Shown piece by piece: positions 8,641-9,180 of a stretch of 43,851 nt of DNA. Numbering within the stretch: the first letter of the stretch is position 1; each line of letters starts with the position of its first letter. Location: the IMG/VR virus record IMGVR_UViG_2531839640_000007. One strand, given 5' to 3'. A program made the translations under genes and the position numbers. The stretch is from a virus (Duplodnaviria; Heunggongvirae; Uroviricota; Caudoviricetes). The notes below the pieces were generated by a model. That model saw only the letters and a program-made list of their open reading frames with translations. It had not been told where the DNA came from and did no database searches.

Positions 8641-9180
8641 ATGCAACCACTTACATACCAACAGACTAGCGGATTTAGCCCGACTGCGGTGATAAATCGT
8701 TCTCAAACAAAACAGGTGCCAGGCCACGAAAAAATCCGTGATGCCGTCCGCGCCTGGTCGGCTGTAGATAATCAGGATGTCGTTGCCACACTCATTGTGA
8801 ATGAGTATCGGGAGCAGGGCGGCGGCACCATCGATTTCCCTGATGATGTCAGCCGTGCACGCCAGAAGCTGTTCCGCTTCCTCGATAACAAATTCGATTC
8901 TGAAAAATACCGAAATAACGTGCGTGAACTGACCCCGGCAATTCTGGCGGTACTACCGCTGGAATATCGCGGTTACCTGGTTGAGCAGGATAGCTTCATG
9001 GCTAGGTTGGCTGAAATGGAAAAGGAACTCAGTGAGGCAAAACAGGCTGTCATTCTCAACGCACCACGCCACCAGAAACTGAAGGAAATTAGTGAAGGTA
9101 TTGTGTCGATGTTTCGTGTGGACCCAGATCTGGCTGGTCCATTGATGGCGATGGTTACTACCATGCTGGGGGCGATATGA
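8641..9180 (+). CDS. Hypothetical protein at the cII position, 179 aa
   Basis: ORF between cro-like gene and O, overlapping O upstream region; no family recognised. Confidence 0.5.
   Translation: MQPLTYQQTSGFSPTAVINRSQTKQVPGHEKIRDAVRAWSAVDNQDVVATLIVNEYREQGGGTIDFPDDVSRARQKLFRFLDNKFDSEKYRNNVRELTPAILAVLPLEYRGYLVEQDSFMARLAEMEKELSEAKQAVILNAPRHQKLKEISEGIVSMFRVDPDLAGPLMAMVTTMLGAI

Follow-up and report, generated by a model that had tools for sequence, protein, structure and literature searches.

A lambdoid prophage gene in the cII position that probably encodes a phi80-type CII of the YdaT family

Phage lambda encodes CII in the slot between cro and the replication gene O. Lambda CII is a protein of 97 amino acids that activates the leftward repressor-establishment promoter at the cro/cII border, as relatives of the protein considered here also do; in lambda the promoter and activator site lie partly inside the 5' end of cII, and the oop RNA is encoded just downstream. 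Here we examine the gene that occupies the same slot in the IMG/VR virus record IMGVR_UViG_2531839640_000007 (Duplodnaviria; Heunggongvirae; Uroviricota; Caudoviricetes), a stretch of 43,851 nucleotides whose full length is referred to below as the window. Its product of 179 amino acids is not detectably similar in sequence to lambda CII, and comparison with cII of phage phi80 and with the ydaT genes of Rac and CP-933P points to an alternative type of CII. Lambda CII, which is required to establish lysogeny and whose mutants give clear plaques, acts as an unusual dimer of dimers on TTGC-N6-TTGC direct repeats to either side of the pRE −35 at the cro/cII border; the site bound by YdaT proteins is an inverted repeat.

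The genetic context of ydaS and ydaT is that of cro and cII equivalents, and their prediction as a toxin–antitoxin pair is not supported (PMC5917428). The leftward promoter between ydaS and ydaT in CP-933P, which feeds the repressor operon, is silent until YdaT activates it, and CP-933P YdaT has been explicitly stated to be homologous to phi80 CII (PMC8630535). The same protein forms tetramers that recognise TTGATT-N6-AATCAA where ydaS and ydaT meet; in the published structure, a POU-like, five-helix helix-turn-helix (HTH) domain, whose two HTH helices are separated by a long loop, precedes a long helix for tetramerisation (PMC9986795). For Rac YdaT the bound sequence is ATGATTcatgaaAATCAA, which covers the start codon of its own gene, and the protein raises racR expression up to 29-fold; although the Rac and CP-933P proteins are 30% identical, they cross-recognise each other's box (PMC11879457). 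An arginine of the recognition helix, R57 in Rac and named Arg60 for CP-933P, is essential for DNA binding (PMC11879457, PMC9986795), and mutation of Rac R57 together with H56 abolishes it (PMC11879457). For both YdaT proteins, functional equivalence to lambda CII has been established by experiment (PMC8630535, PMC9986795, PMC11879457). No biochemical work on phi80 CII was found in the open-access literature.

Family, predicted fold and genomic position of the 179-residue protein

The gene is an ATG-initiated open reading frame (ORF) at 8641..9180 (+), with a Shine–Dalgarno sequence, AAGGAG, at 8629..8634 (+), 6 nt 5' of the start codon. A first-pass annotation of the window, made from the sequence alone, had described a 179-residue protein between cro and O of about twice the size of CII, and the ORF list, the ribosome site, the flanking genes and the comparison with the 97 residues of lambda CII bear this out. 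The same annotation had placed the protein in an unknown family, which does not stand: the match to Pfam PF06254 (YdaT_toxin) scored 103.5 bits where 21 is the cut-off (E=8.5e-30, positions 1–90 of 92 in the profile), and PHROG 163, 'CII-like transcriptional activator', matched residues 17–179 over its entire profile (positions 1–168 of 168; E=3.9e-67). The YdaT proteins of CP-933P and E. coli O6 (8bt1, 3c4r) and of Rac (b1358) belong to the same Pfam family, and a search of the PDB by sequence only reached both YdaT structures, 8bt1 and 3c4r. The Pfam profile for lambda CII (Phage_CII) gave no match at E≤0.1, in keeping with the earlier view that this is not a canonical lambda-type CII, and searches of NCBIfam and PADLOC likewise returned no match. 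The word 'toxin' in the Pfam names of YdaS and YdaT derives from their first prediction as a toxin–antitoxin pair.

A protein database search recovered 705 relatives at E≤0.001, and PF06254 was present in every one of the best 120, most of which the database calls 'regulator' or 'toxin YdaT domain-containing protein'. In Escherichia phage PhiR34_1 (GenBank PV340559), the DNA of which is 99.9% identical to the window across 7500–9300, the annotated cII product matches the protein with 100% identity. Identity to phi80 CII is 66% over the full length (179–180 residues), and the cII products of mEp237 (67%) and of HK225 and HK639 (52%) are also related. Similarity to the YdaT proteins is lower, at only 26–35% identity for Rac and CP-933P, with BLASTP aligning Rac YdaT over 96 residues at 35% identity (E=2e-12). 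Full-length homologues are present in 40 enterobacterial genomes, and the complete reading frame, N-terminus included, is kept across 45 distinct homologous genes. The phi80 record X13065 annotates a shorter CII of 132 residues, but it is the 180-residue frame that is conserved. By its sequence relationships, then, the 179-residue protein is a phi80-type CII, a predicted DNA-binding protein of the YdaT family, and not an orphan; it is also already known, as a member of a recognised alternative type of CII and as the identical protein annotated cII in a near-identical phage. The suggestion in the first-pass annotation of a non-canonical lysis–lysogeny regulator was therefore right in substance, given the family and the 66% identity to phi80 cII, but wrong in treating the protein as an orphan.

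The structure prediction that had been proposed as a check gives a YdaT fold. A single-sequence AlphaFold run was discarded (predicted local distance difference test score, pLDDT, 38.7), and the AlphaFold2 model used here was built from an alignment of 94 sequences spanning the phi80-type and Rac-type branches (pLDDT 80.5). Residues 1–27 fall below a pLDDT of 50 and are predicted to form a disordered leader, which is absent from Rac and CP-933P YdaT. This is followed by a predicted five-helix HTH domain at residues 29–113 (helices 29–43, 45–58, 70–82, 88–104 and 107–113), within which helices 45–58 and 70–82 form the HTH with an 11-residue loop between them, and then by helices 119–138, 143–160 and 162–178. 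In a Foldseek search of the PDB the top five matches were all YdaT chains (3c4r, 8bt1; probability 1.00, TM score 0.64–0.69, about 120 aligned columns), and all remaining matches had E≥0.87. The model thus assigns to the protein a POU-like YdaT fold with an HTH, with the long inter-HTH loop and a long helix after the domain as in the solved proteins. The first-pass annotation had seen no obvious HTH at the N-terminus, a consequence of the motif beginning 45 residues in and being split by the long loop. In the model, helix 70–82 (SRARQKLFRFLDN) corresponds to the recognition helix, and this is nearly identical in phi80 CII (SRARQKLFRFLDN, then K/R). Residue R79 aligns with the essential R57 of Rac YdaT by BLASTP and is kept in 90% or more of the 94 aligned sequences, a set that spans both subfamilies. 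Helix 119–138 is a candidate counterpart of the long C-terminal helix, which in the YdaT family builds the four-helix bundle of the tetramer, and the roughly 120 Foldseek columns suggest that it lies within the match; the two extra helices after it (143–178) stand where CP-933P YdaT has a disordered tail.

The position of the gene is that of YdaT-type genes elsewhere: it lies directly 3' of a Cro/YdaS-like gene, with a divergent repressor gene and with replication genes downstream. The cro-like gene at 8341..8571 (+) encodes 76 residues, matches PF15943 (YdaS_toxin; 4.1e-17) and PHROG 35 together with an additional sub-threshold match to P22_Cro, and precedes the cII-like gene as its partner in the rightward operon. 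The cI-like repressor gene at 7546..8223 (−) encodes HTH_3 and Peptidase_S24 domains (PHROG 4), is annotated cI in PV340559 and possibly uses an alternative upstream start, a TTG at 8298; it is transcribed away from the cro- and cII-like genes. Downstream are gene O, with its likely true start at 9267 (9267..10196, +; PF04492, PHROG 277, BLASTP match to phi80 gp15), and gene P 3' of it (PF06992). The resulting order of cI, cro, cII, oop-like RNA, O and P is that of phi80, in which the corresponding elements are cI, the cro-like gene 30, cII (JX871397 PHI80_49, X13065), the M3/oop RNA, the O-like gene 15 and the P-like gene 14, and an equivalent layout is found in mEp237, HK225, CobraSix, Rac and a CP-933P-like locus (L055), although Rac has replication genes of another type downstream. 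The window differs from phi80 in its cI, cro and operators, and hence in immunity specificity; phi80 also has its own int, whereas the window has a lambda-type int/xis/pI module.

Several further elements were noted in this region. Candidate operators of the cI/cro switch are an inverted repeat, ATGGTTGTT/AACAACCAT, at 8277–8302 and a direct repeat, ACAACCA(A/T)(G/A)GTTTTA, at 8247 and 8295. A YdaT-box-like site at 8313–8330, just 5' of the cro ribosome site, matches at 10 of 12 positions, a quality that occurs at chance frequency. One phage record calls a small downstream ORF 'tail protein', and automatic names are unreliable in this region.

A predicted operator and leftward promoter inside the gene

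Sites were scored against the canonical YdaT box TTGATT-N6-AATCAA (12 positions; core TGA-N12-TCA), and conservation was assessed, once 43 further loci had been gathered from bacterial genomes, in 45 full-length genes, all distinct, whose median pairwise identity is 62%. A predicted CII operator resembling this box, GTGATAAATCGTTCTCAA, lies at 8689..8706 within codons 17–22 of the cII-like gene and matches at 8 of the 12 positions. A box-like repeat stands 48 nt 3' of the ATG in all seven phage homologues examined, including phi80 (ATGATAAACCGCGCTCAA) and mEp237 (ATGATAAATCGCAATCAA), and at the same offset in 43 of the 45 genes, the other two having it 45 nt from the start used. The box thus lies at the 5' end of the gene as in the YdaT systems; in Rac and the CP-933P-like locus it spans the start codon, 7 nt 5' of the ATG, by contrast with its position inside the coding sequence here.

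The consensus conserved at the repeat across the 45 genes, NTGAT(A/T)-N6-NNTCAA, is independent of the meaning of the codons. Codon 17 is NTG in every gene, encoding M, V or L; isoleucine at codon 18 is specified by the rare codon ATA in 42 of the 45, by comparison with 16% of the other isoleucine codons in these genes; the third base of codon 21 is T throughout (45/45) across five different amino acids; and glutamine at codon 22 is CAA in 79% of cases against 26% elsewhere. Conservation of the same kind marks a predicted −10 element, TAGTCT at 8668-8663 (−), of a leftward CII-dependent promoter of the pRE type. A minus-strand TAnnnT, most commonly TATTGT, TACTCT or TATTTT, is found exactly 20 bp to the left of the box in all 45 homologues, and the A at its second position corresponds to the third base of codon 9, which is invariant across five amino acids. 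Among the 107 codons that vary between at least three amino acids, the third base is at least 95% conserved in five, and four of these are codons 3, 9, 17 and 21. The window contains seven sites with the TGA-N12-TCA core, of which that at 8689-8706 alone has a −10 partner.

Two checks of this spacing were independent of the 45-gene set. The footprinted Rac YdaT box (L003 2652-2695) is accompanied by TATGAT at the equal spacing of 20 bp, and in the CP-933P-like locus (L055 1467-1511), the protein of which is identical to the 8bt1 fragment, TATCCT lies at 21 bp. This suggests that a YdaT-dependent promoter may lie directly beside the box in these systems, instead of or besides one about 190 bp away. 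In the window, a leftward start would be predicted near 8656, with the centre of the operator at about −41.5, an arrangement that looks like a promoter of the pRE type. Activators in contact with RNA polymerase classically bind with their centre at this distance (class II geometry). A scan for consensus promoters found no good leftward promoter at the cro/cII border, as is expected of a promoter that depends on an activator.

A scan of the window for YdaT boxes with up to three mismatches gave 24 matches against 21.9 expected. Candidates set aside were the best canonical match in the cro-cII gap, TTAACAataagcAATCAA at 8590-8607, which has three mismatches and which relatives do not conserve; two direct repeats, AGTCAATT, at 8614 and 8633; and a site at the start of Q (15094), which matches at 9 of 12 positions but is without a −10 partner and at chance level. 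No analogue of pI or paQ with the box-plus-TAnnnT geometry was found in the window.

The O start, a second box and the int region

The cII-like gene had been described as overlapping the upstream region of O, and this proved to be an artefact of taking the longest ORF. Taken at its longest, the O ORF (9177..10196) shares 4 nt (ATGA) with the cII-like gene at the stop codon of the latter, but similarity to phi80 gp15 by BLASTP begins at residue 31 of this ORF, aligned to residue 1 of gp15 (MANTAEIFNFP in the window, MSNTAEIINFP in gp15), and the match to the PHROG 277 O profile begins at the same residue, that is, at the ATG at 9267, which is preceded by GGGAGG. By this alignment, the O start annotated in related GenBank records, equivalent to 9177, is probably 90 nt too far upstream. 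The gap of 86 bp between the cII stop and the O start is filled by a minus-strand gene for an oop/M3-like small antisense RNA (9188..9257, ends approximate). A search of 7000–11500 against Rfam did not find the oop family, and the RNA was therefore assigned by way of phi80, where the M3 RNA, with which this stretch aligns, is annotated as 'homolog of lambda oop RNA'. The RNA would form a hairpin at 9198-9228 followed by a T-rich tail, with compensatory differences in the stem when the window, mEp237 and phi80/HK225 are compared, and its fold (−24.1 kcal/mol, z = −2.8) is better than that of shuffled sequence. A candidate promoter for this RNA is a promoter-like, TG-extended sequence, TTGAAT-17-CATAAT, at 9292..9264 (−), the sole sigma-70-like match within 8150–9350. 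The single Rfam match in the region searched was a weak and spurious one to Listeria rliD, caused by the origin iterons inside O (9618-9734; five copies of the TTACCCGAATCAGGTAAA type).

A perfect YdaT box, TTGATTtccaatAATCAA, is present at 13425..13442 ahead of the nin genes. It is the sole match without mismatch in the window, and the chance expectation for such a 12-base palindrome is estimated at about 0.003 per 44 kb. The left half of this box forms the −35 of a putative rightward promoter, TTGATT-17-CATAAT, with CATAAT at 13448-13453; the authors of record X92588 (phage 82) annotated this promoter, and downstream of it lie orf33, orf151 (ybcN/NinB-like), ninE, rusA and Q (15082..15480). 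Equivalent palindromes stand just 5' of the nin genes in phi80 (TTGATAaaacacTATCAA, 38718) and mEp237 (CTGATAatatgaAATCAA, 37760), that of phi80 being followed by the same CATAAT and downstream sequence. The module is present in 21 complete phage records, and all 21 also carry a phi80-type cII; a 22nd match is the partial phage 82 record, which is without the immunity region. Shared ancestry could explain part of this co-occurrence, though the phages are otherwise mosaic. This box lies outside the class II geometry and overlaps the −35 instead, and a reasonable reading is that CII occupying the promoter would delay transcription towards Q. Directly upstream of the box is an ORF for 169 residues (12903..13412, +) with no Pfam match, found in few related phages (PhiR26_1, PhiR5_1).

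The int region is of lambda type. The module of int (1419..2489, −) and xis (2467..2685, −) is 98.6% identical to that of lambda, and immediately upstream of xis, at 2698-2711 (−), is a TTGC-N6-TTGC match, TTGCGTGTAATTGC, which we take to be lambda pI with its CII site. Of the CII-type repeats that the first-pass annotation had proposed to seek upstream of the repressor and int, TTGC-N6-TTGC was absent near cro and cII (two matches in the whole window against 3.4 expected by chance), and the window scan found no YdaT-type box near int. A tblastn search with an approximate lambda CII query found no coding sequence resembling lambda CII anywhere in the window (best E 1.1). On these sequence features, a lambda-type pI and a cII predicted to differ from it in specificity are brought together in the window, and since the window has neither a lambda-type CII nor a YdaT box near int, pI appears to be orphaned from its activator.

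Three other features of the window were recorded. Its left end (3-1284, −) is a host ybhC-like gene of the pectinesterase family, which identifies the element as an integrated prophage. Q is closely followed by a porin gene (15669..16751, −; Porin_1, E=3.5e-152), an arrangement shared with phages of the DLP12/PA-2 type. At 11207-12233 a truncated small multidrug resistance (SMR; emrE-like) ORF runs into the C-terminal remnant of a YbcK-like recombinase that retains the zinc-ribbon domain only; both genes are intact in PhiR34_1, and as the window is about 775 bp shorter overall than the PhiR34_1 record, a deletion of some 0.8 kb here is a plausible candidate.

The proposed circuit and alternative explanations

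Taken together, we consider it probable (about 0.8) that the gene encodes a phi80-type CII, a transcription factor of the YdaT family that replaces lambda CII in this lambdoid prophage. After infection, the protein would be made from the rightward pR transcript, behind cro, and would bind the box-like repeat in codons 17–22 of its own gene (8689-8706). Bound near −41.5, it would help RNA polymerase to start at the weak leftward promoter (−10 at 8668-8663, start near 8656), and the transcript would run antisense through cro into the cI-like repressor gene, so establishing repression. With the promoter and operator inside it, the 27-residue leader would be under constraint chiefly at the DNA level, and the leader, the larger HTH domain and the extra C-terminal helices account for a protein of twice the size of lambda CII. 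The oop/M3-like RNA and the nin-region box are probably further parts of the same circuit, and the second box (13425) may let CII hold back transcription towards Q.

A number of points weigh against this interpretation. DNA binding, oligomeric state and activation are all extrapolated from relatives that are only 26–35% identical. The C-terminal region of the model, with three helices, differs from the long helix and disordered tail of the solved structures, and the mode of oligomerisation may therefore differ. The window's own box agrees with the canonical YdaT box at 8 of 12 positions only; the 45 sequences are related, so that the conservation counts do not represent independent events; conservation in codons 1–8 could partly serve translation initiation; and there is no YdaT-type box near int. 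In addition, the published YdaT-dependent promoter of Rac is about 190 bp from the box, and in the published assignment for CP-933P the box covers the YdaT-dependent transcription start. Given these different positions, the −41.5 geometry is our own inference and not an accepted feature of the family.

Given the names that Pfam attaches to both families (YdaT_toxin, YdaS_toxin) and the many database entries for a 'toxin YdaT domain-containing protein', the gene could be taken for the toxin of a YdaS/YdaT toxin–antitoxin pair with the cro-like protein as its partner, and over-expression of Rac YdaT does lead to filamentation and cell death (PMC11879457). However, the label came from a prediction algorithm, CP-933P YdaT is non-toxic and the pair is not a toxin–antitoxin system (PMC8630535; PMC5917428), while transcriptional activation of rcsA accounts for the toxic effect of Rac YdaT (PMC11879457). 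With a predicted fold that is an HTH DNA-binding domain, no PADLOC match and a cII position in a complete lambdoid early region, we regard a toxin as very improbable. At least as hard to credit is an unrelated cargo (moron) or replication accessory protein between cro and O, for which the position beside O speaks and nothing further. The gene is present at full length in the same slot, directly after a cro-like gene, in the phage records inspected closely (phi80, mEp237, HK225 and CobraSix), its homologues in the 40 enterobacterial genomes are also full-length, its HTH fold is common to proven regulators, and Pfam, PHROG and NCBIfam show no similarity to replication proteins; the cargo function entertained by the first-pass annotation was mistaken, and this is a known, named and structurally characterised alternative type of CII.

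It is harder to separate lysogeny establishment from a different role for the same kind of DNA-binding protein, namely repression (of pR/cro or of the nin-region promoter) or host reprogramming. Rac YdaT also binds operators over the ydaS promoter and over a host promoter, that of rcsA (PMC11879457); the perfect box at 13425-13442 overlaps a rightward −35, a position that would give repression; and the likely pR and the ribosome site of cro have the 10/12 box at 8313-8330 between them. Such 10/12 sites, however, occur at chance frequency, as the counts from the window scan indicate, the most strongly conserved architecture is the box with its leftward −10 inside the gene, and the phi80 homologue is genetically named cII in two independent records. 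Repression or reprogramming as the main role is therefore unlikely, and repression and lysogeny establishment are not mutually exclusive.

Within the proposed phi80-type CII circuit, a more specific joint reading would combine a promoter and operator embedded in the leader, control by CII at the nin-region box and a lambda-type pI without its cognate activator. Codons 8–10 would supply the −10 and codons 17–22 the box, the leader being conserved as DNA and not as protein, and the box overlapping the nin-region promoter, 1.65 kb upstream of Q, would provide direct control of late-gene timing in place of the antisense paQ of lambda. We hold this combination tentatively, with more doubt than confidence; no description of it was found in the literature examined, which excluded the older phi80 literature.

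As relatives of the protein already have solved structures and functional studies, its identification in itself matters little, and the practical value lies in correction, both the 'toxin' label in Pfam and the impression of an unknown family being misleading. The comparative analysis does yield a concrete and cheaply testable prediction of the binding site of this CII subfamily and of the promoter that it fires, and a small experiment may be worthwhile only for the embedded promoter/operator, the nin-region box and the orphaned pI. For the biology of these phages, the nin-region box marks a possible second control point ahead of the nin and Q genes, and the pairing of a phi80-type cII with a lambda-type pI in one mosaic poses the small but real question of how int is expressed in lysogenisation when activator specificities recombine.

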